DNA of 64,000 nucleotides from Patescibacteria group bacterium (GCA_024654625.1 JANLHB010000016.1:64137-128136); one strand, 5' to 3'. Numbered from the stretch's first letter, positions 1 through 39,014 are shown. The notes: generated from the letters alone by a model not told the origin. Translations and numbers: made by a program.

Positions 1-242
1 CTTCCGGTCTTGTGGTTTTAGTTTCAAATAGCGCTTTTGATAATATATTTAGCGCAGATTTGAGGGAGAAGCTGATGTTTAAAGAGCGAGATACTATTGA
101 CCTTGTGTCTAAAATTGAAAATCTGATAAATATCCCTAAAGAAGATATATCGATTATAAAGAAAAATATGAGGGATATTATCGTGAAAAAACATAGTTTA
201 GAAAGTCTAATGGAAAAATTATCTTATGTTCTTAAAGAATAA
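1..242 (+). CDS. 3'-terminal fragment of a gene that starts upstream of the window; function unknown, possibly the end of a glycosyltransferase given the context
   Basis: The open frame runs from the window edge to a stop at 240-242. The next gene overlaps it, in the operon-like arrangement seen throughout the island. Confidence 0.3.
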   Translation, partial: SGLVVLVSNSAFDNIFSADLREKLMFKERDTIDLVSKIENLINIPKEDISIIKKNMRDIIVKKHSLESLMEKLSYVLKE

Positions 243-1002
243 AGTCAGAAAATTAATTTATTCTTTACTGAATATTTTATTACATTTAAGAAGACCGGAG
301 AGAGTAGCTATCTTGATGTATCACTCAGTGGGAGATAGCGACCTTCTTTTTAATGTTTCGCCGGAAAATTTCTTAAGGCAGATTAATTATTTGAAAAATA
401 GGAATTATCAAGTATTGAAGCTTACGGAGGTTATAGATAAAATAAATAGCAAAGAAAGGATTGAGCCGAAAACTGTTGTCATAACTTTTGATGACGGTTA
501 TAAAGATAATTATCAAAATGTTTTTCCTGTATTGAGTGAAAATAATTTTCCAGCCACTATTTTTATCCCGACTTCTTATATAGGAAGTAAGTTTAACGGT
601 TTGGATGTTTTAGACTGGAAAGAGATTAAAGAGATGGCGAGTTCCGGCCTTATTGATTTTGGGTTTCATTCACATACTCACCCTCATAAGATGTCTGATA
701 TAAGTATTGATAATTTTTCTTTAGAGATTAGTGAGGCAAAAAAGATTCTTGAAAAAAATCTTTTTAGATTTGTTTCTGTTTTTGCGTATCCTAGAGGAAG
801 CTACAATGATAGACAGGTTGAATTGTTAAAAAGAGAAGGTTTCGCCGGCGCTGTAACGGTAGAGGAGGGACTAGTAGGAAAAAATGATGACTCAATGAGA
901 CTTAAGAGGAATTTTATCCATAATAAATGCAGTTTTGCCGAGTTTAAGGGCAAATTAGGCTTAAGCGTTGTATGGTTTAATTTTATTAAACATCTTATAT
1001 GA
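226..1002 (+). CDS. polysaccharide deacetylase (CE4/NodB-homology domain)
   Basis: Has the ITFDDGYKDNY motif (TFDDG) and an HSHTHPH histidine motif, in the order and spacing typical of NodB-type deacetylases. Confidence 0.7.
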   Translation: MFLKNKVRKLIYSLLNILLHLRRPERVAILMYHSVGDSDLLFNVSPENFLRQINYLKNRNYQVLKLTEVIDKINSKERIEPKTVVITFDDGYKDNYQNVFPVLSENNFPATIFIPTSYIGSKFNGLDVLDWKEIKEMASSGLIDFGFHSHTHPHKMSDISIDNFSLEISEAKKILEKNLFRFVSVFAYPRGSYNDRQVELLKREGFAGAVTVEEGLVGKNDDSMRLKRNFIHNKCSFAEFKGKLGLSVVWFNFIKHLI

Positions 1003-2387
1003 AGAAAAATACAAAGATAAAAATAATACTATTTTCTATCGCGGTTATTGCTAATTTATTGATGTTTTTTTATCTTTATTCTTCACGTGGTCAAGATTTC
1101 TTTAATCCGTTAACACAGGGAACCGACCAGGCTGAATACGGGCGGATTGCTATTAACTTAGTAGAGCGCCGTTCTTTTTCTGTAGCTGAATTAGATCCAT
1201 ATATTCCTAACCCGGCGCGGACGCCTATTTTTCCATTATTTTTAAGTCTTAGTTATCTTCTCACTGGCGGCTTTATATTGGCAATATTGCTTAACATTCT
1301 TATAAGCGCCATTACAGCTATTATCGTCTTTGATATAGCTTTCTTGGCAGCCAAACGTCCTAATATCGCTTTTTTGTCAGGACTCATTTTTGCCTTGCTT
1401 CCATATAAAATTTATCTTTCAAATTTGATAATGGCTGATATTTTCTTTATGTTTTTTTTCAGTCTTTTTGCATTATCCTTTCTTAAGATTATTGAAGATG
1501 AAGAGGGTTTTAATTTTAAAAATGCTACTTTGGCCGGTAGCTTACTTGGCCTTTCTGTACTCGTACGCCCGATAACTCAATTTTTTATAGTGATACCTGT
1601 CTTTATTACACTATTATTTTTTAAAAAAGATTTTAAGAAAAGAATCGCAGTTTCCGTTTTATTGGTTGTATCGTTTGTTCTTGTTTTAACCCCTTGGCTT
1701 TTAAGAAATGAAATTCATTTTGGAGAACCATTTTTATCATCAGTCGGCAGGTATCATATGTATGTGAGCTATCTGGCGCCTTGGCAAGCGTATAAAGAAA
1801 AGGTATCAAGAGACGAGAAGCATAGAGAGGTTTTAGAATATATTGAGGGTCAATATGGCAATGACGCGATGTATAATATAGAGGCCTCAACAGAGCTCTC
1901 AAAGATAGCCAAGAAAGAGATATTGAGAAATCCTTTGAGCTATCTTTTTTTTCACCTTTCATCAGTACCTATTTATTTTCTGAATAATGATTTTATGCTT
2001 ACAGCCAGAGAAGCATTTAACGCAAAGCTCCCAGACGTATATATAGCACAAAAGATTTTCTCTCTTGATTTTAAGGGGTTACGGCAGGCTATCTTTAGTT
2101 CGGGGATATTTTTTACCGCATTTTTTCTTATCAGTTATCTTGTTGTCGCCATTAAGTCCGGGCTTGGAGTTCTTTGGGTATTTTATTATTTAAAACGCAG
2201 TCTTTATATAAACACTTTTGTTATATTATCCATCTTGTATTTCCCTTTGCTCATCGGCTTTGAGGGGCATGCTAGATTTAGGATACCTATTGAACCCTTC
2301 CTTATAATTTTTTCCGTACTGGCTATTTTTGACATATGGAAGTTTATGAAAGAAAAATTTTTTAAACCGCAAAATGAAAATTTCTAA
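999..2387 (+). CDS. GT-C fold membrane glycosyltransferase, PMT_2/ArnT-like (polyprenyl-phosphate-sugar dependent)
   Basis: Multi-pass hydrophobic protein of 462 aa. An early loop motif NPARTPIFPLFLSL resembles the R-x-P-G-Y-P-x-F-L motif of ArnT/PMT family enzymes. The stop/start ATGA overlaps the neighbouring genes. Confidence 0.55.
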   Translation: MKKNTKIKIILFSIAVIANLLMFFYLYSSRGQDFFNPLTQGTDQAEYGRIAINLVERRSFSVAELDPYIPNPARTPIFPLFLSLSYLLTGGFILAILLNILISAITAIIVFDIAFLAAKRPNIAFLSGLIFALLPYKIYLSNLIMADIFFMFFFSLFALSFLKIIEDEEGFNFKNATLAGSLLGLSVLVRPITQFFIVIPVFITLLFFKKDFKKRIAVSVLLVVSFVLVLTPWLLRNEIHFGEPFLSSVGRYHMYVSYLAPWQAYKEKVSRDEKHREVLEYIEGQYGNDAMYNIEASTELSKIAKKEILRNPLSYLFFHLSSVPIYFLNNDFMLTAREAFNAKLPDVYIAQKIFSLDFKGLRQAIFSSGIFFTAFFLISYLVVAIKSGLGVLWVFYYLKRSLYINTFVILSILYFPLLIGFEGHARFRIPIEPFLIIFSVLAIFDIWKFMKEKFFKPQNENF

Positions 2388-3531
2388 CGGAAAACTTAAA
2401 ATTTTCTATATTGCTAATGCGCGTATCCCCACGGAAAAGGCGCATGGTATACAGATAATGAAGATGTGTGAAGCGTTTGCCACCAAGGGGGCAGACGTTA
2501 CTCTAGTATTGCCTAAGAGGCGTAACCCGATCAAGCAAGACCCTTTCTCTTATTATGAGGTTAAGCCGATTTTTAAGATTAAGAAACTACCTTCTTTGGA
2601 TTTGCTTTTTATTGATAGTCCGGTCACTTTTATATTGAGTGCATTGGTCTTCTCAATATCTGTTTTTGGTTTTCTTTTTTTTAGAAAAAAAGATTATGTT
2701 GTCTATACGCGAGGAGAGATTATTTTATTTTTAAGCAAGTTTTTATCTAGGCGTTTGTTTTGGGAGACACACATTAAACCCTCAAATATAGATAGATACA
2801 AGAAAGCTGTTAGAAAGATTGGTGGTGTTATTGTAGTCACGAAGTATTATAGAGATATATTGATAAAGGAATTTAATGTATTGCCTGAAAAGTTATTATA
2901 TTTTCCCGATAGTGTTGACTTAGATATTTTTGATATAGATATAGACAAAGGAGAAGCGCGGAGGAGATTAAATTTACCGATAGATAAGAAAATAATCGTC
3001 TATACGGGGAGCCTTCTTAAGTGGAAAGGAATTGAAACTTTAATAGAGTCTGCTAATTTTTTAGATGATGATAATTTGCTATATATAGTCGGAGATCTAA
3101 AAAAAGATGATAGTTATTATTTGCCTCTCGTTAAATCTTCTCCTAATATCAAGTTTGTCGGCTTAAAGCCTTATGGTAAAATTCCTTTATGGCTTAAGGC
3201 GTCTGATGTTCTAGTCCTCACGGGCACAGAAAAGAACGAGATTTCAAAATATTATACGTCGCCTTTAAAACTTTTTGAATATATGGCATCAGGTAAGCCT
3301 ATTATCGCTCCGAGATTGCCTTCTTTCTTGGATATTCTTAACGAGAACAATTCCTTCCTAGTCGATTCGGATGATCCAAGGAAGTTGGCGGATCGTATAA
3401 AATTTGTTTTAGCAAACGAAGCTCAGGTTCAAGGTATCACAGAAAAAGCGTATAATGATTCAAAAAATTATTCTTGGAATAAAAGAAGCGAATCAATTAA
3501 GAATTTTATTGAAAATAGATTAATGCTATGA
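2374..3531 (+). CDS. glycosyltransferase family 4 (GT-B, retaining)
   Basis: The C-terminal half carries E-x7-E-like signatures (KLFEYMASGKPIIAP), typical of GT4. Confidence 0.75.
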   Translation: MKISNGKLKIFYIANARIPTEKAHGIQIMKMCEAFATKGADVTLVLPKRRNPIKQDPFSYYEVKPIFKIKKLPSLDLLFIDSPVTFILSALVFSISVFGFLFFRKKDYVVYTRGEIILFLSKFLSRRLFWETHIKPSNIDRYKKAVRKIGGVIVVTKYYRDILIKEFNVLPEKLLYFPDSVDLDIFDIDIDKGEARRRLNLPIDKKIIVYTGSLLKWKGIETLIESANFLDDDNLLYIVGDLKKDDSYYLPLVKSSPNIKFVGLKPYGKIPLWLKASDVLVLTGTEKNEISKYYTSPLKLFEYMASGKPIIAPRLPSFLDILNENNSFLVDSDDPRKLADRIKFVLANEAQVQGITEKAYNDSKNYSWNKRSESIKNFIENRLML

Positions 3532-4607
3532 AAATAGGGATAATTTTACATCCGTATGGAGAAGGGAAGCCGGCCGGCTTAGGTCGTTATATCTTAGAAC
3601 TGACAAAATCTCTTATTGAAAATGATAAAGATAACGAGTATATAGTTTATCTTAAGGAGAAGCCTAAGATAATGCCGGAATTTATTACTTCAAATTGGAG
3701 GGTTGAAGTTTTAGGCTTGGGCAGATTTTGGAGAGAGATAGGGTTTTTCTTTGCGCCAAAGGCGGATATTTATATATTTAACACTCCGGTAATGCCGATC
3801 TTTTTTCGGTCTAAGAAATCTATTGTAATCGCTCTTGATTTTGCTTATCTTTATTTTAAGCCGGATGGAATCAAAGAAAGAATTAATAATTTCTTATTAT
3901 ATAAGATGAATAGTTTTGCTTTGAAGCGAGCGGATAAAATAGTTTCTATATCAGAAGCGACAAAAAAAGATATTATCAAATTGTTTAATATTCTTGATAA
4001 AAAAATAGAAGTGATATATCCCGGCTTTAGTAAAATATGCGCTTTTCCGTCAGAGGAGATTGCTGTTCCTTTAAATTTCTTTCTTTATGTTGGAGTGATC
4101 AAAGAAAGGAAAAATCTTCTAAATATCATAAAAGGTTTTTATGAATTTAAGAAAGAGAATAAGTCTGATATTAAGCTTGTTGTAGCCGGCAAAGGGAGTG
4201 GCGCTTATTATGAAGAAGCATTGTCTTTTGTTGAGGAGGATGATTTAAAAGAAGAAGTGGTCTTCTTGGGATTTGTTAATGACAATCAGTTGTCTTTCCT
4301 ATACAAGAACGCCAGAGCCTTTATCTTTCCTAGTTTGATTGAAGGTTTCGGTATGCCCGTACTTGAGGCGATGGACTGTGGCCTGCCGGTTGTCACTTCA
4401 AGGGAGAGCTCTCTTTCTGAAGTGGCTGGCGGCGCGGCGCTCTTAGTTGACCCGAAAGACCCAAAAGAGATATCAAGAGTTATGGAGAGGGTAGCTTTTG
4501 ATGATAAGCTAAGAGATGATTTGATAGAGATGGGAGATAGAAGGGTGATTGATTTCTCATGGAAGAAATGCGCTAGCCAGTTTATAGTATTACTTAATAA
4601 AATATGA
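3528..4607 (+). CDS. glycosyltransferase family 4
   Basis: Contains the motif EGFGMPVLEAMDCGLPVVTS, canonical for GT1/GT4 nucleotide-sugar binding domains. Confidence 0.8.
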   Translation: MKIGIILHPYGEGKPAGLGRYILELTKSLIENDKDNEYIVYLKEKPKIMPEFITSNWRVEVLGLGRFWREIGFFFAPKADIYIFNTPVMPIFFRSKKSIVIALDFAYLYFKPDGIKERINNFLLYKMNSFALKRADKIVSISEATKKDIIKLFNILDKKIEVIYPGFSKICAFPSEEIAVPLNFFLYVGVIKERKNLLNIIKGFYEFKKENKSDIKLVVAGKGSGAYYEEALSFVEEDDLKEEVVFLGFVNDNQLSFLYKNARAFIFPSLIEGFGMPVLEAMDCGLPVVTSRESSLSEVAGGAALLVDPKDPKEISRVMERVAFDDKLRDDLIEMGDRRVIDFSWKKCASQFIVLLNKI

Positions 4608-6316
4608 ATTCCATAATAAGAAAACATTTTTTGTTTATAATTCTTATTGCTGTTCTTGCTATCTATCTTGGATATATGGCGACTCTTGAGAATACTTGGG
4701 ACGGCTGGGCTTTTGGTTCGGCTCAAACGCTTTTAAGTTCAGAACATTGGTTAAAAGATGGATTTATTTTTAATAAATTCCTTTTTTTGCCTATGGGTTA
4801 TTCAAAAGTAGTTAAGTATCTTGACGAACCGGAATTGAGGCATCTTGCAAGAGGACTCCACGAGGGTCAGGCTATATTGATAGATCAAAGATCTCATTAT
4901 ACTCATTACCCGCCTGGTTATCTTTTGCCATATGCGACTTTGATGAAAATAGGATTTTCCGAGAGATATTGGTTTAGATTTTTGTCGTTATTTTTTTCAT
5001 TTACAGCGCTTGTTTTTATGTACTGGTTTTTTAATTTAATTTCAAATCGTATCGTGGCATTTTTTGCTGTTTCTTATTATGCGGTATCCACAATGTTTCT
5101 TGGATTTGCTGATTCTTTGGCTAATCAGCCGATTGATGATTTTCTGCGATTTAGCATTATGCTTTTGAGCCTTTTTGCCGTAAAGGCGCGTGATAATACT
5201 GAGAAATATAGATTGTATAACATTTTTATCTGGATAATTTATTTTATCTTGGCGATTTCTTCTTATGATTCCACTTTTTTTATTTTCATCTGGCTTGTGG
5301 GACTTGATCTCGTAATGACTAAGAAAATTTTATGGAAGAGATGGCTAATCTTTGTCTTAGCGCCTATTGCGGCATTTACTCTTCAGTTTTTGCAAAACTG
5401 GTGGTATCTTGGATATCCCGATGTCTGGCTTGATGCAAAAGGTATTTTTTTTAAAAGATCTTTAGTTGGTCCAGGAAATAATTTTTTTGAAAAGCATATA
5501 AGGTCCATGTTATCGCCTTTGGCTTATATTACGGGTCTTAGGGTAAGAGTGATTTTGCCAATTATAGCGATAGTGATAGTTATAATTTCAATCTTTATTA
5601 AGAAAATTGTTGATAATAGACAAAATCTATTTAATTTAAAGCTACTTGCAGTTTTGGCTTTAGCCGGCGCTTCTTATCCTTTTATTTTTACCACTCCGGG
5701 GTATTTCGATTACAGCGGCAGACAATTTGCGCCATTTATAGGATTGATGATTGGATTATCAATTTTTCTATTGATTAAAACATTATCTAAAGAAAATAGC
5801 GGAAAGTCCTTCAGTTTTAATAAGTGGAATATAAAATTTATAATCACATTTTTTCTTCTGTCTATATTTGTTGGATTTATATTTTTTATTCAATTACGCA
5901 GGACATACGGATATGTTTTTAATCGGAATATAGATTCCAGTTATAAGCAATTTATCTATAGGGTAGATTATGATATAATTGATTTTTATAGAATCCTAAG
6001 GTCTTTATCTTCGAATGACAGTATAATATTTTACATTACACATAAGGAGGGAGAATATTTTACAAGTAATCCTATTTCTATTAGAGAATATTATGCTGAA
6101 GGGCTTATTCTAGATTCTTTGAAGTATGAAGATGTAATTAATAATTATTTACTTTTGAAGCAATACTCAGAAGAGTTTTTTGATTCTATTATTGTATCGA
6201 CAGAAAGAGAGCCACTGGAAAAAATTTTAAAAGCCTTATCCATGGATGTGGATGGCATTTCTGAAATAAAATTGATTAAGAGCAGGTATGTTATGGTGAT
6301 TAAAGAAAAATTATGA
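4604..6316 (+). CDS. paralogue A of a four-member family of large polytopic membrane proteins (putative GT-C-like glycosyltransferase; variable C-terminal domain)
   Basis: A ~330-aa conserved N-terminal block is shared with 6313-7947, 8697-10352 and 11922-13595(-). Shared motifs are WDGW.FGSAQT..SS.HW..DGF, FLFLPMGYSK, YYTHYP.GYL.PYA.LMK.GF.ER.WFR, ADSLANQP.DD, SSYDSTFF.F.WLVGLDL and LQN.WYL. The protein has many TM segments. Confidence 0.6.
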   Translation: MNSIIRKHFLFIILIAVLAIYLGYMATLENTWDGWAFGSAQTLLSSEHWLKDGFIFNKFLFLPMGYSKVVKYLDEPELRHLARGLHEGQAILIDQRSHYTHYPPGYLLPYATLMKIGFSERYWFRFLSLFFSFTALVFMYWFFNLISNRIVAFFAVSYYAVSTMFLGFADSLANQPIDDFLRFSIMLLSLFAVKARDNTEKYRLYNIFIWIIYFILAISSYDSTFFIFIWLVGLDLVMTKKILWKRWLIFVLAPIAAFTLQFLQNWWYLGYPDVWLDAKGIFFKRSLVGPGNNFFEKHIRSMLSPLAYITGLRVRVILPIIAIVIVIISIFIKKIVDNRQNLFNLKLLAVLALAGASYPFIFTTPGYFDYSGRQFAPFIGLMIGLSIFLLIKTLSKENSGKSFSFNKWNIKFIITFFLLSIFVGFIFFIQLRRTYGYVFNRNIDSSYKQFIYRVDYDIIDFYRILRSLSSNDSIIFYITHKEGEYFTSNPISIREYYAEGLILDSLKYEDVINNYLLLKQYSEEFFDSIIVSTEREPLEKILKALSMDVDGISEIKLIKSRYVMVIKEKL

Positions 6317-7947
6317 AAAGACATTCATTTTTTGTTATATTATGTTTGATTTTAGTCATTTATCTTGGAATCAAGACATTGTCTGATGATGGTTGGGGCG
6401 GGTGGCTTGAGGGGATAGGTGACGCAGCAACTCTTCTTTCTTCCAAACATTGGTCGGAAGACGGTTTTATCTATAGTAAGTTTCTTTTTCTGCCGATGGG
6501 TTACTCAAAGACTGTGAAATATTTTGATGAGCCAGAAATGAGGCAGCATGCTCGCGGCACGGTGACTGGCGGAATGATAGGGAGGCGCCTTTATTATACT
6601 CATTATCCGAGTGGCTATCTTATTCCATATGCATTATTGATGAAAGCTGGATTTGTAGAACGGCATTGGTTTAGATTATTAGCTTTGTTTTTTTCTTTTG
6701 GCTCGCTAATTCTAATGTATTGGTTTTTTAATTTAATTGCCACAAGATCCGTCGCTTTTTTTGCCGCTTTTTATTATGGTATTTCAACTATGTTTCTGGA
6801 TTTTGCTGATTCTTTGGCTAATCAGCCTGTCGATGATTTATTTAGGTTTAGCATTTTAGTTTTAAGTGTTTTAGCTGTTAAATCGATTGATAATTTAAAA
6901 AAGTATGAGATATATAATGTATTTATATGGTTTTTATATTTTGCTCTTGCCAGCTCTTCGTATGATTCCACATTTTTTATTTTTGTCTGGCTGGTTGGGT
7001 TGGATCTTATAACTGTAAGAAAGTTTTTATGGAAAAAATGGCTTATCTTTACATTAGCACCGGTTGCCGCTTTTGGTTTGCAGATAATCCAGAATTGGTG
7101 GTATCTAAGGAGTTGGAAAGATGTTTTCCTTGACATATCTGGCACTTCGTCTGCAAGGGTGCAGACTAGTAATATTTTAAGCCATATAAAACAAGTTTTT
7201 TTTACTTTTAATTTGGCATCAGGCTTAAAAACAGTGACCATCACTTTAATGGTTATAATTCTTTTGACCCTTCTTTATATATTTAGAGGAAAAATTAGTC
7301 AGCTCTACAAAAATTATATCAATGATAGCTTTAAATTATCCCTATTCCAAATTATGATAATACTTTTTTTGGCTGGGGCTTTATATCCTTTTGTGCTAGC
7401 TGGAACGGGGGGTTTTTCTTATCAAGGTCGTCAAGTCATGCCTTTTCTGGCTTTATTGATAGGAGTTAGTACTGTTCTGGCTATTAGATTGTTTAAAATT
7501 AAGGAAAAAACAAGGATTTTTCCTCAAATTATTTTGATTTTTACTTTGATATTTCTATGGGGATGGCAGATATACAGAACAACTCAATATATATATGCCT
7601 GGCCTAATAATAAACCAGATGCTCGTATTATTGAAATTGGCGACTATTTAGAATCATCAAGAACAGGGGATTCGGTAGTTTTTTATTTAGGAGACAGATT
7701 GCCTTTGACTTTATTAACAGAATATTATTTAAATATGCCATTTTTGTTTTTTAAGGATGAATCTAGCTTGGTCAGGGATTTTCTTTGGCTTAAAGAGCAT
7801 TCTGAATATTCTTTTGACACATTTATTATTTCAGATAGAAAAGGAATCAGCGATAATCTGCATAAATTATTATTGAAAGAGAGCGTTAATGAGACAGTAA
7901 GGATAAAATTTATCGCAGGGGAATATCTTTTTAAATTATCATTTTAA
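6313..7947 (+). CDS. paralogue B of the same membrane-protein family
   Basis: Same conserved N-terminal motifs as 4604-6316. The C-terminal ~200 aa are divergent. Confidence 0.6.
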   Translation: MKRHSFFVILCLILVIYLGIKTLSDDGWGGWLEGIGDAATLLSSKHWSEDGFIYSKFLFLPMGYSKTVKYFDEPEMRQHARGTVTGGMIGRRLYYTHYPSGYLIPYALLMKAGFVERHWFRLLALFFSFGSLILMYWFFNLIATRSVAFFAAFYYGISTMFLDFADSLANQPVDDLFRFSILVLSVLAVKSIDNLKKYEIYNVFIWFLYFALASSSYDSTFFIFVWLVGLDLITVRKFLWKKWLIFTLAPVAAFGLQIIQNWWYLRSWKDVFLDISGTSSARVQTSNILSHIKQVFFTFNLASGLKTVTITLMVIILLTLLYIFRGKISQLYKNYINDSFKLSLFQIMIILFLAGALYPFVLAGTGGFSYQGRQVMPFLALLIGVSTVLAIRLFKIKEKTRIFPQIILIFTLIFLWGWQIYRTTQYIYAWPNNKPDARIIEIGDYLESSRTGDSVVFYLGDRLPLTLLTEYYLNMPFLFFKDESSLVRDFLWLKEHSEYSFDTFIISDRKGISDNLHKLLLKESVNETVRIKFIAGEYLFKLSF

Positions 7948-7963: not shown

Positions 7964-8716
7964 ATGTCTTACTATAAAAGCAACGACAGCCAGAAGGAAT
8001 TTTTTAATCAGATTATAGATACATACAGAATAGGAAATGAGGCAAACATAGACCTCTTGCTTAATTTAAGGAATGCAGTATCTGAGTTCATTGAGGGTGA
8101 TATTTTGGATATTGGTAATGGAGGATTAATAAATTTTGATATTGATAAAGCTAAATCAGTGATTTTAGCTGATATTGTTTTGGACCCAATAAAGAATCCA
8201 AAAATAATTAAAGGTAGATCCATTGTAGAGCTGGACGAAGACCATAAGAAACTTTTTAATTTCGTAGAAGCGGATGTTTTAAAAATGCCTTTTGCCGATA
8301 AAAGTTTTGATAGAGTTCTGATGTTTAATGTAGCTCATCATCTTTCGGTGGAATCTTCTAAGGATTCTGTTTTAAATATTAACTATGCCATAGATGGCAT
8401 TAAGAGGATTTTGCGCGATGATGGTATTTTTTTGATATGGGAGACTTGCCCATCTTTTCCGATTAAATTGGCTCAAGATGCGGGCTATAATTTATTATTT
8501 TGGATATTAAAAAAATTTAACAGGCCCTTGCCTTATTTTTTGGCCAGAAAAAATATAAAAAAATTACTGGAGAAAAAGGGATTTAATTTGATTTTAGTTA
8601 AAGAGATAGAATGGGGAGACAAAGTTTATTCACCTATATTTCCAAAGATCCTTGCTCCTAGATGGCTGTGGAATAAAATTTTGAGGACTTATTTATTTGT
8701 GGCTAAGAAAAATTAG
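7964..8716 (+). CDS. class I SAM-dependent methyltransferase
   Basis: Glycine-rich motif I (ILDIGNGGL), an acidic loop, and VLMFNVAHHL (post-II/III region), typical of Methyltransf_11/12. Confidence 0.6.
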   Translation: MSYYKSNDSQKEFFNQIIDTYRIGNEANIDLLLNLRNAVSEFIEGDILDIGNGGLINFDIDKAKSVILADIVLDPIKNPKIIKGRSIVELDEDHKKLFNFVEADVLKMPFADKSFDRVLMFNVAHHLSVESSKDSVLNINYAIDGIKRILRDDGIFLIWETCPSFPIKLAQDAGYNLLFWILKKFNRPLPYFLARKNIKKLLEKKGFNLILVKEIEWGDKVYSPIFPKILAPRWLWNKILRTYLFVAKKN

Positions 8717-21754: not shown

Positions 21755-21772
21755 AGAAAGAGAGACTTCAAC

Positions 21773-21805: not shown

Positions 21806-21817
21806 TGTCTATAATCT

Positions 21818-21843: not shown

Positions 21844-21896
21844 ATGGATTTAAGATATAGTTACTGGAAAAAAAGCGAGAAATCAGCTATATTTTA

Positions 21897-31611: not shown

Positions 31612-32352
31612 ATGAATAAAGAAAAAGAAGTGAAAACTCAGGATTTTGTAGCAGACTTTTATGAAAAGGTTCGATATGAGAAAGAATATTCCAGAAAATA
31701 TCATAATTTTTGGTTTGGGAAGATGATGAAAATGGCTCCGCCGAGGGGCTTGGTGCTTGATGCCGGCTGTGGGACAGGAGAAATGATGGAATTCTTGAAA
31801 GAAAATAATTTTGATAATTTTATCGGCTATGACATCTCTTTCAATATGCTTGTTCATGCTAAAAATAGAGCCGAGAGGTTGGTTTGTGCTGATGCGGAGA
31901 ATCTTCCTTTTGCCGATGGCTCTTTTGACGTTATCTATGCTCGCGCGCTCCTGCACCACCTCTTTGATGTGTCAAAGGCCCTGTGTGAGATAAAGAGGGT
32001 TTTAAAGTCGGGTGGAGAAGTTGTGTTTGCTGATACTAATAAATCTTTTGTTAATGATTTGCCGAGGAAGATTATGAACAAGGGTGAGCATTTTGCCGAG
32101 AGCCATAAGAATTTTAAAAGTAGCGAGATAATAGAACTTATCAAAAAAGAATTCAACATCAAGGAGGTTTATTATTTTGGTTATATCGCTTATCCTCTGT
32201 TAGGTTTCCCTGATATGGTCAATATTTACAGATTCTTTCCGGGTAAATTCATCTTGACACCTACCCTCATATTTATTGATAAAATCATCAGTCAAATCCC
32301 GATTGTAAAAAAGCTCGCTTTCGGTATAATGATAAGTGCTAAGAAAAGATAA
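31612..32352 (+). CDS. class I SAM-dependent methyltransferase
   Basis: LDAGCGTGE motif I and a later ALLHHL block. Confidence 0.65.
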   Translation: MNKEKEVKTQDFVADFYEKVRYEKEYSRKYHNFWFGKMMKMAPPRGLVLDAGCGTGEMMEFLKENNFDNFIGYDISFNMLVHAKNRAERLVCADAENLPFADGSFDVIYARALLHHLFDVSKALCEIKRVLKSGGEVVFADTNKSFVNDLPRKIMNKGEHFAESHKNFKSSEIIELIKKEFNIKEVYYFGYIAYPLLGFPDMVNIYRFFPGKFILTPTLIFIDKIISQIPIVKKLAFGIMISAKKR

Positions 32353-32354: not shown

Positions 32355-33080
32355 ATGCCTGAAAATTTTGAAAAGATACAAGAATCAAATGAAAACATAG
32401 AGAAAGAACCAAAACCTTTTTCTACTTTGGTGTTACTCGGAGGTCCGCTTAAGGAAAATGAAAAAAGAGGTTTTCAGTATGATCAAGAGGGCGGCCTGGA
32501 ATATGAGTATAAAGATGGAGGTTGGCAACTTGGAAGATGGGCGAAGATGAGAGCTATTGCCGCTTCGGATCTCATTGAAAGGGATTTGGTTGATAAGCTT
32601 ATCATTACAGGTGGCAAGAATTGGGGAGAAGAGAATCCTTCGGCAGCAGAGGTGATGGCCGAATTTATAAAAAGGAAGATTGAGAAAGACACTAAAGAAG
32701 AAGTAATTTTCCCTAATGATAAGATAATATTGGCAGATAAGTATCATGATACAGCAAGTAGTTTAAAACAAGTTTTGGATGATTTGCCCAAGGAAGATAT
32801 CGAGAAGATTACTTTTCTGACCAATGAGTTTCATTTAAAAAGGAGTAAGCAGTCTTTAGAAAACCTAGGATTTAAAGAAAAGGATATTGAGGGGATAGAT
32901 GCGGAAAAGATTTTAACTGAAAGATCAGATCATTATAAATCTTTTGTTAAGAAATTTAATAGAACACCTGATACTATTAAACAAGAAATTTTAGAAGTGA
33001 TCGGTCGTGGCATTATGTCCGTCCGTGGAGAGAAACTTATAAAAGCTTTGGCTGATTTAATAAGAAAAGATAAAAAATAA
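32355..33080 (+). CDS. DUF218/YdcF-ElyC-like protein (tentative)
   Basis: LVLLGGP and a later IITGG block resemble DUF218 signatures. This is weak, motif-level evidence. Confidence 0.35.
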   Translation: MPENFEKIQESNENIEKEPKPFSTLVLLGGPLKENEKRGFQYDQEGGLEYEYKDGGWQLGRWAKMRAIAASDLIERDLVDKLIITGGKNWGEENPSAAEVMAEFIKRKIEKDTKEEVIFPNDKIILADKYHDTASSLKQVLDDLPKEDIEKITFLTNEFHLKRSKQSLENLGFKEKDIEGIDAEKILTERSDHYKSFVKKFNRTPDTIKQEILEVIGRGIMSVRGEKLIKALADLIRKDKK

Positions 33081-33084: not shown

Positions 33085-34548
33085 ATGAAAAAAATAATTT
33101 TTATAAACCCGCCCACGCCCGAACTTGGGGTAATGGTTATAAGAGATTTGGACCGCTCTGGCCGAAAGACGCGCGAGAAGACAATCTGGCCACAGACAAA
33201 CCTGGCTTATTTGGCAGCGGTTATGAAGGATAAAGGTTTCAGCGTAGACCTGATGGATTGTATTGCTGACGAGATTCATTGGAGTGAGCTAGGAGGGAAT
33301 TTTGAGGAAATTATAGATAAGAAAAAACCGGATTATATCCTTTTTAATGCTATAAGCTCCACTATCTCAAATGATATGAGAGTAGCGAGTATTGCTAAGA
33401 AGGTTGGCGCCAAGAGCATCGCTGTCGGTTCTCATGTCACTGCTTTGCCGAAAGAGAGTATAGAGAAATTCAAAGACCTTGATTTTGTAATTGAAGGCGA
33501 AGCTGAGGAGACTCTGTCAGAGCTTGTGGATGTTGTTGAGAAAGGAGGAGATTTATCTCTCGTGAAAGGTATTGCTTACAGAAAAGAAAGCGGGGAAGCT
33601 ATTGCTAATGAAAAGAGGCCTTTGATAAAAGATCTTGATTCTCTCCCTATCCCTCTTCATGAGCTTATGCCTATAGAGAAGTATAATCTTCCTTTTATCG
33701 GCTCTAAATTTACTTTCGTTACAGCTTCGAGGGGGTGCCCTTTCCGTTGTATGTTTTGCCGTTCGCCGATTGCTTGGAATAGAATTTTTAGGCAACGTTC
33801 AAATGACAGTATTCTTGCGGAGTTAAGATACCTAAAGAAGCTTGGCATTAAAAATATTTTATTTCACTCAGATACTTTTACTGTAAATAAGAAAGAGATT
33901 ATTGAGTTATGCAAAAGAATGGTTAATGAAAATTTAGGTATAAGATGGATGTGTAACTCCAGAGTAGATACTGTGGACTTTGAAACGCTTGAGTGGATGA
34001 AAAGAGCCGGATGCGAGATGGTAATGTTTGGCCTAGAGTCAGGTTCTCAGAAAGTTTTAGATAATGCCAGGAAAGATATTACCATAGAGAAGATACGAGA
34101 GAGTGTTAATAATGCCGCCCGTGCCGGTATCAAGGTGTGGGGTTACTTTATAATAGGTCTACCCGGAGAAAATAAGGGAACTGTAGATGAGACAATCAAG
34201 TTAGCTAAAGAATTACCCTTAACTCTGGCTAATTTTGCAGTTGCTTCTCCTTACCCTGGTACGGATTTCTTTAAGCTTGTCACTGAAGAAGGCTGGCTTA
34301 CAAGCAGTAACTGGGAAGATTTTGATCAGAATTATTCAGCTATCGTAGATTATCCTGATTTCTCAAGTGAAGAGATTGTAAATAGCATGAAAAGGGCTTA
34401 CAAAGAGTTTTATTTAAGACCAAAAGCTGTCTGGAATATGCTAAAAGGAATAAGAAGTTTCCACGATGTTAAGGTCTTAACTGACGTTGCTTGGACGCAC
34501 CTTAAGTGGATTCTTTTCTATAAAAAATCCGCAAAGCCAGCCAAATAA
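33085..34548 (+). CDS. B12-binding-domain radical SAM enzyme (class B-like)
   Basis: An N-terminal Rossmann-like cobalamin-binding region is followed by ASRGCPFRCMFC (CxxxCxxC) and the radical-SAM core. Confidence 0.7.
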   Translation: MKKIIFINPPTPELGVMVIRDLDRSGRKTREKTIWPQTNLAYLAAVMKDKGFSVDLMDCIADEIHWSELGGNFEEIIDKKKPDYILFNAISSTISNDMRVASIAKKVGAKSIAVGSHVTALPKESIEKFKDLDFVIEGEAEETLSELVDVVEKGGDLSLVKGIAYRKESGEAIANEKRPLIKDLDSLPIPLHELMPIEKYNLPFIGSKFTFVTASRGCPFRCMFCRSPIAWNRIFRQRSNDSILAELRYLKKLGIKNILFHSDTFTVNKKEIIELCKRMVNENLGIRWMCNSRVDTVDFETLEWMKRAGCEMVMFGLESGSQKVLDNARKDITIEKIRESVNNAARAGIKVWGYFIIGLPGENKGTVDETIKLAKELPLTLANFAVASPYPGTDFFKLVTEEGWLTSSNWEDFDQNYSAIVDYPDFSSEEIVNSMKRAYKEFYLRPKAVWNMLKGIRSFHDVKVLTDVAWTHLKWILFYKKSAKPAK

Positions 34549-35457
34549 ACTATTTACAAAAAAAGTAAAAAGAATTAAGACGGAGAATGATATTGCCTCA
34601 GGGCTAGACAGTCCTATTTGAGAAAATAAAAATATCAATGATATGTCTCTTGTACCTATCCCCGATATGGAGATCGGTATTAAGTTAAGTGATGTAATTA
34701 TGGCAGCTATCAAGAAGGCGGTCAGTAAATCGATCTTTAGGTTGAGTGCTACGGTCAATAAATATAATTGGAAGAAATAAAAACCCCAAGCGACGAGAGT
34801 TATCAGTAAATTTTGGATGATGAGGATCGTCGGTTTTTTAAATGAAGCAAACAGATCGTCAATCTCTTTTTCAGCTATATCTTGGATTTTAGAATGAGTG
34901 ATACTCTCTTGGCGTTTAGCAAGCTTCTTTAGTATCTTGAATAAAACTTTCTTTAATATATTTTTATTTAGAACAAAGATCAAGATAATGATTATTATTA
35001 TTCCCAGCATCGCTGTCAGAACATAAGTGATCCCATTGATATCTTTGAAAAATAGCAGTACGCCTGTAATCCCGAGCAGTAGAATCGTCACCATATCAAA
35101 TAATCTGTCAAAGATGACGCTGGCCGCCGATTTGCCCCAGGAGATATGCTTCTTATTGAGAAAGAGTATTTTTACAAGTTCGCCTAGTTTGGCCGGTGTG
35201 ATTGCTCCCCAGAAGACTGCGTAGAAATATATAAAAAGAGACTCCATGAAAGGTATATTCACCCCTTCGTTTTTTAGTAATTTTTGCCATCTTATATTCC
35301 TCAAAATTATGGCTGGTATGCCCAAGAGTAGAGATAAGAAGATGATAAAGACATTGGCGCTTAGCGCTATCTCGAGACTCTTGTTTATATCTATTCTGTA
35401 TAAGACGATGGCGAAAATGACGAGGCCGATAAATTGAAAATAGTGCTTGAAGGTCAT
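34477..35457 (-). CDS. UPF0104/lysyl-PG-synthase-TM-domain-like membrane protein (flippase-like)
   Basis: About 8 TM helices. It is directly coupled (ATG/stop overlap) to the GT2 gene 35457-36320, an arrangement common for this family. Confidence 0.4.
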   Translation of the reverse strand: MTFKHYFQFIGLVIFAIVLYRIDINKSLEIALSANVFIIFLSLLLGIPAIILRNIRWQKLLKNEGVNIPFMESLFIYFYAVFWGAITPAKLGELVKILFLNKKHISWGKSAASVIFDRLFDMVTILLLGITGVLLFFKDINGITYVLTAMLGIIIIIILIFVLNKNILKKVLFKILKKLAKRQESITHSKIQDIAEKEIDDLFASFKKPTILIIQNLLITLVAWGFYFFQLYLLTVALNLKIDLLTAFLIAAIITSLNLIPISISGIGTRDISLIFLFSQIGLSSPEAISFSVLILFTFFVNSLFGWLCGFFIEKNPLKVRPSNVS

Positions 35458-36320
35458 TATTTTTCATTTCTCATTATTGTGGATGTCTGGTCGGCCAAGA
35501 GTCCGTTAAAGAAGATTAAGAAACTGGTCAGAAGGATGAGAAGTCCGGATATCGGGAATTTCCCAAAGGATACTATCCCATATAGAGAGAATGACACCCC
35601 CAGCAGAAATAGAACAAAACTGGCCGGTAAAAATATTTTGAGGGGATTGAAAAGCATTATCATCCTTAATATCAGGAGAATTGTTTGGAGTCCGTGTTTT
35701 GTCTTAACAGTACTCTTTGATTCTTCATTCCTTTTGTTTATGGTTATTGGAATATATTTTACATTCAGCCCTTCTCTGAAGAAAGCCAATGTTATGGTTG
35801 TTGTGAGGGAAAATGAGTTAGGAAAGAGATGCATGAATCTAAAGAAGCCGCTCTTTTTTACCAATCTAAAACCTGAGTTTAGGTCTGGTATTTCTGCGTT
35901 GACTAAATATTCGGCTAGCGCTTTTAAAAATCTTTTACCTGGCTGTCTAAAGGTAGGGCCTTTGTAAGCCGTTCTTTCTCCTACAATCATGTCGTAATTG
36001 TCAGTGTGCTCTAAAAGCTCAAGTATATAATCTGTTTTGTGCTGTCCGTCTGAGTCAAAAAACATCACCCAATCATAAGATGAATTTTTAACGCCGGTTT
36101 TTAGCGTCGCTCCGTATCCGCGGTTTTTGTCATGAGTTATGAGTTTGATACCTTCTATTTGTTTTAATACATTTTTAGTTTTTTGGTTTGACCCGTCATC
36201 AACTGCTATTATCTCATGCTCTCCTGTGTTTTTATTTAAAAAAGTTTTTAAGTCTTCAAGAGTGCGTCTTGCGCTTTCGCCCTCATTATAGACAGGTATT
36301 ATGATTGAAAATTTTACCAT
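35457..36320 (-). CDS. GT2 glycosyltransferase, DPM1-like with C-terminal membrane anchor
   Basis: FSIIIPVYNE and IIAVDDGSNQKT (DxD) motifs. Confidence 0.75.
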   Translation of the reverse strand: MVKFSIIIPVYNEGESARRTLEDLKTFLNKNTGEHEIIAVDDGSNQKTKNVLKQIEGIKLITHDKNRGYGATLKTGVKNSSYDWVMFFDSDGQHKTDYILELLEHTDNYDMIVGERTAYKGPTFRQPGKRFLKALAEYLVNAEIPDLNSGFRLVKKSGFFRFMHLFPNSFSLTTTITLAFFREGLNVKYIPITINKRNEESKSTVKTKHGLQTILLILRMIMLFNPLKIFLPASFVLFLLGVSFSLYGIVSFGKFPISGLLILLTSFLIFFNGLLADQTSTIMRNEK

Positions 36321-36547
36321 ATTAGTTATTTTTTATATTTTTAATTTAAAAGTATTGGGATTTCGTCCTTTATTTCATATTTTTTCCCGCATTTTAGACA
36401 GAGGAGACTATTCTCTTTATCGTTGTATTCCAGCTTTCCTTTATCTGTTGGACAGACTAATATTTGGAGGAGATTCGGATTAATTTCTTTTTTATTTTGA
36501 TTGTCTTTCATAAACAATTAAATTCTATACTTATTTTGGCGTTTTGA

Positions 36548-36578: not shown

Positions 36579-36582
36579 ATAT

Positions 36583-36819
36583 ATGTCTAAAAAAAAGACA
36601 AAAATATATCAGGACCATGAGGGGTGCATAGGCTGTGGGAGCTGTGTGGCTGTTTGCCCTAAATTCTGGAAGATGGGCGATGACGATAAGGCGGAGATAA
36701 TAGGCGGAAAGAAGAATGAGAAAGGGGATTATGAGCTTGATATTGACGAAGTCGGTTGCAATAAAGACGCTGAAGAAGCTTGTCCGGTGCAAGTTATTAA
36801 AGTTATGGAAAATAAATGA
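36583..36819 (+). CDS. small [4Fe-4S]/[3Fe-4S] ferredoxin
   Basis: CIGCGSCVAVCP cluster motif plus a distal C...CP. Confidence 0.6.
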   Translation: MSKKKTKIYQDHEGCIGCGSCVAVCPKFWKMGDDDKAEIIGGKKNEKGDYELDIDEVGCNKDAEEACPVQVIKVMENK

Positions 36820-39014
36820 AGCAAAAAGAATTAAAAATTTTATCTTATGTTGTTAGGGGCGGTATTTTCATCCTCCCCGTCATTTTCCTGATTGTTTCTA
36901 GTATGTTCTTTTTTCCTTTTATAACAGGGAAAAATTTTTTCTTTAGAACAGTTGTTGAAATTATATTTTTATTATGGGTTGTCTTGGCTGTATTTGATAA
37001 GAGTTATAGACCGAGAAAGACTCCCGTTCTTCTCGCTTTAGGAGCGACTCTTTTTGTATTATCTTTAGCAACTATTTTTGGGGAGAATCCTTATCGCAGT
37101 TTTTGGTCTAATTTTGAGAGAATGGAAGGGTTAGTGGGGCATATACATTTATTTTTGTATTTTATAATAGCAATAAGTTCGTTAAGACTGAAAGAAGATT
37201 GGCTATGGCTTTTTAGAAGTATTGTTGCCTTCGGCACATTAGCTATTCTTTATGCTTATTTTCAGCTTTTTGGAGCGTTTAAGATACATCAAGGTTCAAC
37301 TAGGCTTGATTCCACTTTTGGCAATGCTTCTTATTTGGCTATCTTTGTTATATTTCAGCTTTTTATACTAACTATTCTTTATCTTAGGTCTTCGGACACT
37401 AAGATAAAATATTTATATGCCGGTCTAGCGGTAATCAGTTTGCCGATACTTTATTATACTGCCACGAGAGGCGCTATTTTAGGATTCCTTGTCGGGCTTG
37501 TTACTTTTGGTATTGTTGCCGGTCTTTTGACTAAAAATAAAAATGTCCGCAGGTTCTCGCTAGGCGCAATTATCGTTGTGGTTCTGGCAACGGGTCTTTT
37601 TATAGCCGTTAAAGATTCTTCGTTTGTTGCCAAGAGTCCAGTTCTAAATAGACTTTCTTCCATATCTTTGACAGAGAAAACGGTTGAGTCCAGGTTCCTG
37701 ATATGGAACATGTCTATAAAAGGATTTAAAGAGCATCCGATCTTAGGTTGGGGTCCAGAGAATTATAATCTTTTGTTCAATAAATATTATGATCCGCGAC
37801 TTTGGGGGCAAGAGCAATGGTTTGACAGAGCGCATAATGTCTTCTTTGATTGGCTTACAACTGCCGGAATACTCGGGCTTCTAGCTTATCTTTCAATATT
37901 TGTCACTTCTCTATTTATGGCATGGAAGCTTTACAAGAAAGGAAGAATGAGTATTTTTGAAATCGCGGCGATTTTTGCCGTTTTTGCCGCTTATGGTTTT
38001 CATAATCTTTTCGTGTTTGATAATTTAATTTCATATTTTTTATTCTTCAGCATACTAGGATATATAAGTTATCAATATAGTGAAGAGGGCGCTATTTCTC
38101 AAAAAATTGATCTAAGTAAAAATGAACCTAGTCTTTTGGGATATTCTGTTGTCATTTTGGCTTTTATGTTTGTTTTGACTTCTCTTTATTTTGTAAATCT
38201 AAAGCCCGCGCTAGCTGCTAAAAATCTTATTGATACATTAAGATATTCCGGGACAGGTCAAAGTTCAAGTGTTGTGCTGGATAATTTTAAACGCGTGATT
38301 TCTTTGAATACTTTCGGTACTGCTGAGGCGGTGGATCAACTCTCTGATTATGCCAATAAAGCAAGATCTTCAGATAATTTCTCAGATGAAGAAAAAATAA
38401 AAATTCTTAATATGGCAACATCTGAAATTGACAAGCAGATAGAGAGGAGTCCTAAAGATTTAAGATATTATCTCTTTGCCGGATCGCTTTATAATAAGTC
38501 CGGTCAAGTTGAAAAATCGCTTGAAAGACTGACTAAGGCGCAAGCTCTTGCGCCGACAAAACAAGCTGTTTATTTTGCTTTGGCTGACACTTATGTAAAA
38601 GCCAATAAGCCGGAAGATGCGTTTGAGGCGGCAGAAATTGCCTATAACCTTGATAGGGACTATGGAGAGGCAGTAAAAAATTTTGCGATAATGGCTGCTA
38701 TTGCGAAAAAACAAGAATATGTCAATGAAATTATAGAGAAGTATTATTACGGTAAGGATATCCCAAGCACTAATCTTGCAACAGCTTATTTTATGGTGGG
38801 TAATTTTGAAAAAGTTAAAGATACTTGGATCGCGCTTGTAAATTCAGACCCTATGAATGCTCAATATCATGTAAGCTTAGCGGCCGCTTATTCAGAGCTT
38901 GGCATGAAGGGTGAGGCGATAAGGGAAATTGAAGAGGCAATCAAATTGATGCCTGAATTTAAAGCGCAAGGAGAGTATTATATAAATGAAATTAAAGCCG
39001 GGAGAAAACCTTAA
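36816..39014 (+). CDS. O-antigen ligase/polymerase-family (Wzy_C) membrane protein with C-terminal TPR repeats
   Basis: More than 10 TM helices. TATRGAILGF and RAHNVFFDWLTTAGILG resemble conserved WaaL/Wzy_C motifs. The C-terminal 250 aa have TPR-like periodicity. Confidence 0.5.
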   Translation: MKQKELKILSYVVRGGIFILPVIFLIVSSMFFFPFITGKNFFFRTVVEIIFLLWVVLAVFDKSYRPRKTPVLLALGATLFVLSLATIFGENPYRSFWSNFERMEGLVGHIHLFLYFIIAISSLRLKEDWLWLFRSIVAFGTLAILYAYFQLFGAFKIHQGSTRLDSTFGNASYLAIFVIFQLFILTILYLRSSDTKIKYLYAGLAVISLPILYYTATRGAILGFLVGLVTFGIVAGLLTKNKNVRRFSLGAIIVVVLATGLFIAVKDSSFVAKSPVLNRLSSISLTEKTVESRFLIWNMSIKGFKEHPILGWGPENYNLLFNKYYDPRLWGQEQWFDRAHNVFFDWLTTAGILGLLAYLSIFVTSLFMAWKLYKKGRMSIFEIAAIFAVFAAYGFHNLFVFDNLISYFLFFSILGYISYQYSEEGAISQKIDLSKNEPSLLGYSVVILAFMFVLTSLYFVNLKPALAAKNLIDTLRYSGTGQSSSVVLDNFKRVISLNTFGTAEAVDQLSDYANKARSSDNFSDEEKIKILNMATSEIDKQIERSPKDLRYYLFAGSLYNKSGQVEKSLERLTKAQALAPTKQAVYFALADTYVKANKPEDAFEAAEIAYNLDRDYGEAVKNFAIMAAIAKKQEYVNEIIEKYYYGKDIPSTNLATAYFMVGNFEKVKDTWIALVNSDPMNAQYHVSLAAAYSELGMKGEAIREIEEAIKLMPEFKAQGEYYINEIKAGRKP

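Follow-up and report, generated by a model that had tools for sequence, protein, structure and literature searches.

A glycosyltransferase island in a Parcubacteria-group genome and a candidate GT-C family linked to radical-SAM enzymes across phyla

Lipid-phosphate sugar donors that are used by GT-C glycosyltransferases constitute an already well-known kind of system. In the Arn pathway, ArnC, ArnD, ArnE-F and ArnT bring about the transfer of undecaprenyl-phosphate-linked 4-amino-4-deoxy-L-arabinose (L-Ara4N) to lipid A, and in actinobacteria pairs of a GT2 and a GT-C enzyme are proven protein O-glycosylation machines. In the GtrA/GtrB/GtrX, CsbB/GtcA/YfhO, GtrB-PgtC2 and PgfS-PgfM1 systems, a GT2 enzyme makes an undecaprenyl-phosphate monosaccharide; once this has been flipped, a GT-C enzyme on the outer side of the membrane uses it (PMC12041528). 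Here we describe an island of glycosylation genes in a metagenome-assembled genome of the Parcubacteria group (Patescibacteria), located at 226-39943 (about 40 kb) of the window, by which we mean the whole 64,000-nucleotide stretch of DNA that was analysed (GCA_024654625.1, JANLHB010000016.1:64137-128136; locus tags NUV64_004xx on a contig of 213,731 bp). Open reading frame (ORF) calling and Pfam and NCBIfam scans revealed a near-unbroken run of 35 genes in this region.

The island encodes nine GT-C, three GT2, four GT4 and one GT9 enzyme, a Wzx flippase, a Wzy_C-TPR protein, a second flippase-like protein and a DUF218 protein, together with a tailoring set of four methyltransferases, two CE4 deacetylases, four radical S-adenosylmethionine (radical-SAM) enzymes, a ferredoxin and an epimerase. 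Glycosyltransferases account for 17 of about 36 island genes, and because they are grouped in paralogous families the arrangement is far from chance. Every gene class named in an initial annotation of this DNA was recovered, and the island proved denser than had been claimed. Where at least eight GT-C genes had been counted, Pfam, BLAST, hhalign and AlphaFold2 (AF2) modelling with Foldseek gave nine; the epimerase is present, but at 39032-39943, just beyond the end at 39014 that had been given to the island; and the single B12-radical-SAM gene was confirmed at 33085, while three further radical-SAM genes (at 18328, 19335 and 20573), the DUF218 gene, the flippase-like gene at 34477-35457 and a Trm112-like ORF had been overlooked. 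We consider it fairly probable (about 0.6) that the island directs the biosynthesis of an envelope glycoconjugate by a hybrid pathway that joins a Wzx arm to a GT-C arm and uses radical-SAM-tailored sugars. Nine different GT-C enzymes alongside a Wzx protein, a WaaL-like protein, GT4 and GT9 enzymes and tailoring functions are more easily understood if a complex glycan is put together step by step than if proteins are mannosylated in a single reaction. In the ultra-small, episymbiotic Patescibacteria, attachment to the host and recognition by phages both take place through the cell surface, and to our knowledge none of their surface glycans has been characterised; here, about 4% of a roughly 1-Mb genome is spent on one glycoconjugate.

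Five of the nine multi-span GT-C candidates match no Pfam or NCBIfam model. The PMT and PMT_2 types comprise 999-2387 (+), with about nine transmembrane segments, which matches both PF02366 (34.1 bits) and PF13231 (32.1 bits); 14989-16356 (+), which matches PF13231 (32.5 bits); and 13592-14965 (-), whose match to PF13231 is weak (23 bits, gathering score 26.1) and which is related by BLAST to the 14989 protein (E 1e-12) and the 999 protein (E 6e-6) and also matches the Agl23 model TIGR03663 (E 2e-6). A divergent PMT_2 relative, 30025-31578 (+), which we call family C, has no Pfam match of its own; some of its homologues carry PF13231, and its family profile was aligned by hhalign with the PMT_2 group of the window at 92.5% probability (E 4.7e-7) and showed no relationship to the family described next. 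This is family A, whose four core paralogues at 4604-6316 (+, about 11 transmembrane segments), 6313-7947 (+), 8697-10352 (+) and 11922-13595 (-) share 36-49% mutual identity, the 4604 and 8697 proteins being 49% identical, the 6313 protein 44-48% and the 11922 protein 36-41% identical to their paralogues. No Pfam or NCBIfam match to family A was obtained even at permissive thresholds (E ≤ 10 or E ≤ 1), PF13231 is present in only a few of its distant homologues, and hhalign found no relationship between family A and the PMT_2 group of the window (0.2% probability), so that the profiles do not allow family A to be regarded as merely a divergent PMT_2. Neither the family A nor the family C profile matched any PDB sequence, and a phmmer search of the PDB with the window PMT_2 proteins returned no GT-C match; ArnT-like and PMT-like types could therefore not be told apart by sequence.

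The assignment of family A to GT-C rests on its fold. An AF2 model of 8697-10352, built on a 31-sequence alignment (predicted local distance difference test, pLDDT, 89.5; predicted TM-score, pTM, 0.90), consists of a multi-span transmembrane core and a small C-terminal alpha/beta domain. When this model was compared with the PDB by Foldseek, ranks 1-32 were all GT-C enzymes (best E 1e-6, TM-score 0.41-0.49), namely STT3/OST (oligosaccharyltransferase), ArnT, AglB, PglB, AftA, ALG9, AftB, ALG12, Pmt4, Emb, ALG3 and PimE; the closest folds were those of STT3/OST, ArnT, AglB/PglB, AftA/B and ALG9, and Pmt4 was found at rank 27. Family A is thus predicted by modelling to have the GT-C fold. Four acidic residues (D82, D184, D227 and D282) are invariant in the family and D176 is nearly so; D82 is followed by D/E83 in 84% of the sequences, and E/D37 is likewise found in 84%. 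D82, D/E83 and E/D37 are located in the first loop, between the first and the subsequent transmembrane helices, and the other Asp residues lie in later loops. The 10330-11919 (+) gene encodes a distant relative, for which 124 relatives were found; its family (A5, 37 sequences) aligned with family A over 326 columns (hhalign 99.4%, E 8.3e-22), and by this link it is a GT-C enzyme by transitivity. Some distant relatives of the 10330 protein have C-terminal F5/8 type C (discoidin, carbohydrate-binding) domains, which would be consistent with an extracytoplasmic, carbohydrate-facing role. Current hidden Markov model libraries miss family A, and annotation pipelines label all five copies 'hypothetical'.

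In what genomic company is family A found? We surveyed GTDB species representatives and annotated the neighbouring genes by similarity to the window proteins. Family A occurs in 49 loci from at least eight phyla, its carriers belonging to Patescibacteria, Nitrospirota, Thermodesulfobacteriota/Deltaproteobacteria, Geobacter, Planctomycetia, Elusimicrobia, Omnitrophota and Riflebacteria, and the Parcubacterium proteins are only 32-35% identical to those of the distant phyla. Small GT2 and radical-SAM/SPASM genes lie within 6 kb of family A in 19 of the 49 loci, which come from Nitrospirota, Desulfobacterota, Geobacter and others; as many contigs are short, this number is a minimum. The usual order is a radical-SAM/SPASM gene of the 20573 type, a small GT2 gene, a radical-SAM/SPASM gene of the 19335 type and family A; a small radical-SAM gene of the 18328 type follows family A in six loci, and a GT9 gene lies upstream in two. 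Geobacter locus L030 combines GT9, three radical-SAM enzymes, GT2, family A, a flippase-like protein, a B12-radical-SAM enzyme, a second GT2, a DegT aminotransferase and the alpha and beta subunits of a thiamine pyrophosphate (TPP)-dependent E1 enzyme. One Logan contig with the cassette adds a PMT gene, two YfhO-like GT-C genes and a nucleotidyltransferase gene. This linkage of family A to a small GT2 and radical-SAM/SPASM enzymes across phyla suggests that the donor is a radical-SAM-remodelled sugar. The conserved GT2/radical-SAM/GT-C cassette, which also occurs in Nitrospirota, Desulfobacterota, Planctomycetota and Elusimicrobiota, offers a testable entry to new lipid-linked sugar chemistry in anaerobes.

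In the window, the cassette begins with a GT9-like GT-B gene at 17159-18172 (+, PF01075, 39 bits), whose product is 52-54% identical to orthologues in the Geobacter locus and in Deferrisomatales locus L040. It is followed by a small radical-SAM gene at 18328-19203 (+, PF04055; 57-64% identical to cassette orthologues), by radical-SAM/SPASM genes at 19335-20486 (+, PF04055 and PF13186; 65-71% identical to Nitrospirota and Geobacter orthologues) and 20573-21754 (+, PF04055 and PF13186), and by a gene for a small soluble GT2 of 240 residues at 21897-22619 (+, PF00535). These five genes form a compositional islet (17159-22619) with a GC content of 39-45% (45% in the GT9 gene) and a third-position GC content (GC3) of 40-50%, the corresponding values in the flanks being 31-36% and 25-35%. 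Both this composition and the 52-71% identity of the GT9 and two radical-SAM proteins to those of Geobacter and Nitrospirota suggest that the tailoring cassette was acquired horizontally. Among solved structures, the nearest relatives of the radical-SAM enzymes are BlsE, BtrN, MoaA, TYW1 and viperin, whose substrates are nucleoside sugars, nucleotide sugars or cyclitols; the 20573 protein in particular is related to BlsE (E 7e-10) and also to BtrN, its nearest relative being a nucleoside-sugar decarboxylase.

Two further features recur around family A in other organisms. Proteins of about 550-670 residues with 6-11 predicted transmembrane segments and a C-terminal TPR array often flank it in diderm phyla (L030 345-2360, L031 11726-15519, L034 4348-6054, L051 1351-3177, L054 6622-8592 and others); their membrane part has no Pfam match, and their architecture resembles that of GT-C-TPR proteins (TMTC-like or PMT_2-TPR). 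Split transketolase/E1-dehydrogenase alpha/beta pairs of the TPP type (L001 9043-10802, L030 4757-6775, L053 1-1681) are also found repeatedly in such cassettes, where they may attach two-carbon branches to keto-sugars; the window has none.

The enzymes that would supply the GT-C proteins with their donors are less uniform than had been thought. The initial annotation described three DPM1-like GT2 enzymes; three GT2 genes are indeed present, but only the protein encoded at 35457-36320 (-, PF00535, 103 bits) has the sequence hallmarks of DPM1, GtrB and ArnC. It has a DSDGQH motif and a C-terminal transmembrane hairpin, its best NCBIfam matches, all below equivalog cut-offs, are to AglJ, PgfS, PpgS, ArnC and a dolichyl-phosphate hexose transferase, and its PDB matches are to ArnC, GtrB and dolichyl-phosphate mannose synthase (DPMS). 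Abutting this gene on the same strand is a gene for a flippase-like LPG_synthase_TM/TIGR00374 protein (34477-35457, -; PF03706, 159 bits; TIGR00374, 116 bits), and the same pairing is seen in the Geobacter locus. Directly upstream of the pair, also on the same strand, we noted a 58-residue Trm112-like zinc-ribbon ORF (36341-36517, -), in which the motif CPxxKG...CxxCG was read directly from the sequence; Trm112-type proteins activate methyltransferases. The second GT2, a small soluble protein of 241 residues (16337-17062, +; PF00535), is 49% identical to the cassette member at 21897 and is a candidate polyprenyl-phosphate sugar synthase, with PDB matches to GtrB (E 9e-9) and DPMS (E 6e-7). In NCBIfam both small GT2 proteins are classed as generic, and both GT2 types match the PgfS model weakly. 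The PMT_2 gene at 14989 overlaps the 16337 gene, and other Patescibacteria, including the source of locus L002, have the same PMT_2/GT2 pair, so that the link between small GT2 and GT-C, although contextual, is strong. Considering the hallmarks of the 35457 protein, the flippase-like gene that abuts it, the 14989/16337 pair and the linkage in 19 of 49 loci, the earlier proposal that GT2 enzymes make polyprenyl-phosphate sugars for use by extracytoplasmic GT-C enzymes is supported.

How might these components work together? In the cytoplasm, the four GT4 enzymes, the GT9-like enzyme and possibly the soluble GT2 enzymes would build a lipid-linked oligosaccharide from sugars that the SAM methyltransferases, CE4 deacetylases, epimerase and radical-SAM enzymes may tailor, and the Wzx-type flippase would carry this oligosaccharide across the membrane. 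In parallel, the GT2 enzyme at 35457-36320 would charge polyprenyl phosphate with a monosaccharide, as the small GT2 enzymes at 16337 and 21897 probably also do, and the adjacent TIGR00374-type protein would translocate the charged lipid. Outside the membrane, each of the nine GT-C enzymes would add a sugar to the growing glycan, and the WaaL/Wzy_C-TPR protein would ligate or polymerise the product. The gene families, the fold of family A, the paralogy, the cassette found across phyla and the compositional islet are results of the analysis; in this scheme we infer the lipid chemistry of the donors, the order of the steps and the identities of the sugars; as acceptor, a glycan or a lipid-linked molecule is favoured over a protein.

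Several observations weigh against this scheme. The 35 genes at 226-44018 gave no match to a phosphoglycosyltransferase of the PF00953 or PF02397 type or to the Wzz family, so that the Wzx arm is here without its first enzyme, and the island has no GtrA-family flippase. The small GT2 proteins at 16337 and 21897 have no transmembrane segments and show PGDNE where GtrB has DADLQ, which makes their lipid-phosphate acceptor no more than putative. Similarity to the GT-C fold (TM-score about 0.45-0.49) does not give the identity of either donor or acceptor. Moreover, we know of no Patescibacteria island of this kind whose product is known, and in the literature on GT-C enzymes in Patescibacteria (the candidate phyla radiation, CPR), or on radical-SAM together with GT-C enzymes, we found nothing or only generic statements.

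The island shares parts with several described systems and coincides with none of them. As in the Gtr, CsbB and Pgf systems, a GT2-made lipid-phosphate monosaccharide would serve an outer GT-C enzyme; in contrast, the GT-C proteins of the island do not belong to the YfhO family, GtrA is lacking and there is no disordered Ser/Thr-rich acceptor nearby. The mycobacterial pathways to lipomannan, lipoarabinomannan and arabinogalactan (Ppm1, PpgS-Rv3779, PimE, Mpt and Emb/Aft) resemble the island in employing many serial outer GT-C enzymes on polyprenyl-phosphate sugars and a short soluble GT2 of the PpgS type, and AftA, AftB, EmbC and PimE are among the fold matches of family A. However, no sequence-level tie to GT53, GT85, GT87 or GT89 exists, the island is without DprE1/E2 or UbiA-type donor genes, and both the phylum and the envelope are different. 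The eukaryotic and archaeal ALG/OST pathways are hybrid in the same sense, with cytoplasmic GT-B and GT-A steps, flipping, extension by GT-C enzymes and en-bloc transfer, and it is STT3, AglB, PglB and ALG9 that family A matches best in fold; yet family A lacks the large C-terminal WWDYG domain, and the final transferase of the island is WaaL/Wzy_C-like rather than an OST. The Wzx/Wzy pathway is represented by a Wzx-like protein (23674-24981) and a Wzy/WaaL-type protein (36816-39014), but neither an initiating phosphoglycosyltransferase nor a chain-length regulator accompanies them among the 35 genes.

The protein encoded at 26517-28070 (+), which is 517 residues long, had been proposed as a Ser/Thr-rich secreted acceptor. 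Its N-terminus has a charged start followed by a hydrophobic helix of about 24 residues; the anchor or signal that had been supposed is therefore present, which places the protein outside the cytoplasm in an anchored or secreted form. No island protein is richer in Ser and Thr (18.0%, against 10.8% for the island), so that its composition was correctly described, but its longest Ser/Thr run is of 3 residues, it has no poly-Ser/Thr tract, and no such tract occurs in any other real gene of the window. An AF2 model (pLDDT 74.9) shows three beta-sandwich domains, for which the best domain-level Foldseek match is 7vbo, an alginate-binding carbohydrate-binding module (CBM; probability 1.0, TMt 0.59). 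Fourteen homologues were found, sharing a core at residues 163-376 or thereabouts, and all three homologue contexts that were retrieved are phage structural modules (portal, capsid, protease, tail-tube and SU10-adaptor genes); relatives of the core were also found in 43 IMG/VR viral contigs at 25-44% identity, so that the domain is widespread among uncultivated phages. A PHROGs scan of the protein and its phage-context homologues gave no meaningful match, the core has no Pfam model, and tblastn found no paralogue in the window's own prophage. The GC3 of the gene, 21%, is the lowest in the island. Known targets of bacterial GT2/GT-C protein O-glycosylation are disordered poly-Ser/Thr regions (PMC12041528). 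Because the 26517 protein is predicted to be a folded beta-sandwich with a CBM-like, phage-associated core and no disordered Ser/Thr tract, it is a poor candidate for an acceptor, and a role in binding glycan is more plausible for it than one as substrate.

The main alternative that we weighed is O-glycosylation of Ser and Thr in surface proteins (an S-layer protein, a pilin or the 26517 protein), with the GT-C enzymes acting in the PMT/Ppm or GtrB-PgtC2/Pgf manner or the Wzy_C-TPR protein acting as a PglL-like O-oligosaccharyltransferase. Streptococcal GT2 and GT-C pairs are proven for such a role (PMC12041528), both GT2 types of the island show some likeness to PgfS, the 36816 protein has TPR domains, which are often protein-binding, and the 26517 protein is at once extracytoplasmic and the richest in Ser and Thr. 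The island also shares with the actinobacterial and fungal PMT and Ppm1/DPM1 systems one GT-C enzyme that matches PF02366 and one DPM1/GtrB-like GT2, and the invariant Asp followed by Asp or Glu in the first loop of family A recalls PMT. On the other hand, the island has nothing of the GT39-specific architecture (PMT_4TMC, MIR), only the 999-2387 protein touches PF02366, the remaining GT-C proteins matching PF13231 or nothing, and it is only at low ranks that PMT structures appear when family A is compared by fold. The folded, CBM-like and phage-associated 26517 protein lacks the disordered Ser/Thr-rich regions of known targets, no other real gene of the window supplies a Ser/Thr tract, and nine GT-C enzymes with a Wzx protein and GT4 enzymes exceed the needs of a single-sugar system. 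We therefore regard protein O-glycosylation as unlikely, although a protein other than 26517 might conceivably be a target, and the PMT/Ppm-type O-mannosylation put forward in the initial annotation, tempting as that reading was, is unsupported.

We consider it decidedly unlikely that the island instead modifies a lipid in the manner of the Arn pathway, in which case an unusual sugar, for example an amino-pentose formed by a radical-SAM decarboxylase, would be loaded onto undecaprenyl phosphate by a GT2 enzyme, deacylated by a CE4 enzyme, flipped, and transferred by a GT-C enzyme to a membrane lipid or lipoglycan anchor. Both have a GT2 with a DxDxQH-type motif and a C-terminal transmembrane region, a CE4 enzyme at the cytoplasmic face (the island's CE4 genes adjoin GT-C genes and lack signal peptides), a flippase step and an outer GT-C enzyme; ArnT ranks among the leading fold matches to family A (E 5e-6), and the 35457 protein aligns with ArnC structures and is a sequence neighbour of ArnC. 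One radical-SAM enzyme is BlsE-like, of the glucuronate decarboxylase type, a DegT aminotransferase is encoded in the Geobacter cassette and a UDP-glucose dehydrogenase in locus L002, and the cassette is found in diderm phyla that have lipid A. We know of no Parcubacteria that make lipid A, however, and the window has no ArnA or ArnB gene and lacks DegT and formyltransferase genes; the candidate flippase resembles LPG_synthase_TM rather than ArnE/F, radical-SAM enzymes replace NAD-dependent tailoring, and nine GT-C enzymes, where Arn has one, far exceed the need of a single modification, and an oligo- or polysaccharide product is what the GT4 enzymes, Wzx and the WaaL-like ligase suggest. Finally, the radical-SAM/SPASM enzymes might mature a ribosomally synthesised and post-translationally modified peptide (RiPP), as in mycofactocin, which the glycosyltransferases would then glycosylate. 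SPASM domains are typical of peptide maturases, weak NCBIfam matches to sactipeptide or MftC-type maturases and to an MftF-like GT2 were obtained, and CteB is among the PDB matches. Yet a search of the gaps between 17062 and 21897 for a precursor-peptide ORF gave no convincing candidate, the cassette genes of other phyla abut or overlap and leave no room for a precursor, the better PDB relatives use nucleoside or sugar substrates, and the cassette sits among sugar-nucleotide enzymes (E1 alpha/beta, DegT and epimerase). A peptide product is thus highly improbable, and we read the radical-SAM enzymes as probable sugar-tailoring enzymes rather than RiPP maturases, because of the substrates of their PDB relatives and because no precursor ORF was found.

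Within the preferred reading, that of an envelope glycoconjugate, a more specific proposal is possible, although we hold it only tentatively. Family A may be a new, phylum-spanning GT-C family that serves as terminal transferase of an undescribed radical-SAM/SPASM sugar-remodelling pathway, the sugar being nucleotide- or polyprenyl-phosphate-linked and being installed on the envelope by the small GT2 and the GT-C enzyme. The cassette would have been acquired horizontally and the transferase expanded to five paralogues, and the glycan-binding domain of the 26517 protein would be of the kind that phages use to recognise the glycan. By analogy with known enzymes, BlsE-like decarboxylation and BtrN-like oxidation or epimerisation are possible chemistries, and such remodelling would possibly be an anaerobic counterpart of ArnA or DprE1/E2 chemistry. 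Four features appear to be new: the unmodelled GT-C family with its expansion to five paralogues in this genome; the association of this family with a small GT2 and radical-SAM/SPASM enzymes in different phyla; the cassette's apparent arrival in a Parcubacterium by horizontal transfer; and the presence within the island of a phage-type CBM-like protein. Full-text literature searches found none of the four described.

The remaining island genes supply the cytoplasmic and tailoring functions, and all of them lie on the plus strand. The GT4 (GT-B) genes are found at 2374-3531, 3528-4607, 22629-23699 and 28787-30022 (PF00534; 71, 123, 138.7 and 126 bits, respectively). The Wzx-like lipid-linked oligosaccharide flippase at 23674-24981 has about 11 transmembrane segments (PF01943, 79 bits; PF13440, 67 bits). 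The Wzy_C/WaaL-like protein at 36816-39014 (PF04932, 85 bits, with C-terminal TPR matches) matches the WaaL structure 7tpg over residues 38-367 (E 1.6e-6) and has an orthologue in Paceibacterota locus L018; from its sequence it would be either a ligase or a polymerase. The SAM methyltransferase genes (PF08241) are at 7964-8716, 24987-25634, 28150-28776 and 31612-32352 (95 bits for the last). The CE4 polysaccharide deacetylase family is represented at 226-1002 (PF01522, 94.9 bits), overlapping the next gene, and at 25636-26397 (PF01522, 67 bits); in neither protein was a signal peptide found or a transmembrane segment predicted, which fits action on cytoplasmic-face intermediates, as for ArnD. 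The DUF218 gene (PF02698) at 32355-33080 is followed by the B12-binding radical-SAM gene at 33085-34548 (PF02310 and PF04055), which is HpnJ/BchE-like (TIGR03471, 288 bits, below the cut-off). A small ferredoxin of 78 residues is encoded at 36583-36819, its CIGCGSCVAVCP ... CP motif (CxxCxxC...CP) having been read directly, and the last island gene, at 39032-39943, encodes an NAD-dependent NDP-sugar epimerase/dehydratase (PF01370, 213 bits). In close relatives (loci L004-L006) that are syntenic with the island, further GT4 and methyltransferase genes precede the CE4/PMT_2 pair; the island therefore probably starts upstream of the window. Housekeeping genes for MurB (40223) and SecA (41481) lie downstream of the island.

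The GC content of the window is about 34% over 1-44 kb and 45-52% over 44-64 kb. No Rfam family or tRNA was detected in the window, so that neither marks the boundary between the two parts. The region at 44000-64000, directly downstream of SecA, is prophage-like, differing from the host (34% GC) in composition and having a strong A-skew; either a true prophage of a CPR bacterium or a chimera introduced by assembly could account for it. Genes in this region code for an IstB/DnaC-like ATPase (49063), a ParB-like protein (50762), two PD-(D/E)XK nucleases (46803 and 53590), a Dam-type methyltransferase (54765), an SU10/P22-like portal protein (56029-57981) and an SU10-type major capsid protein (59850-61070).

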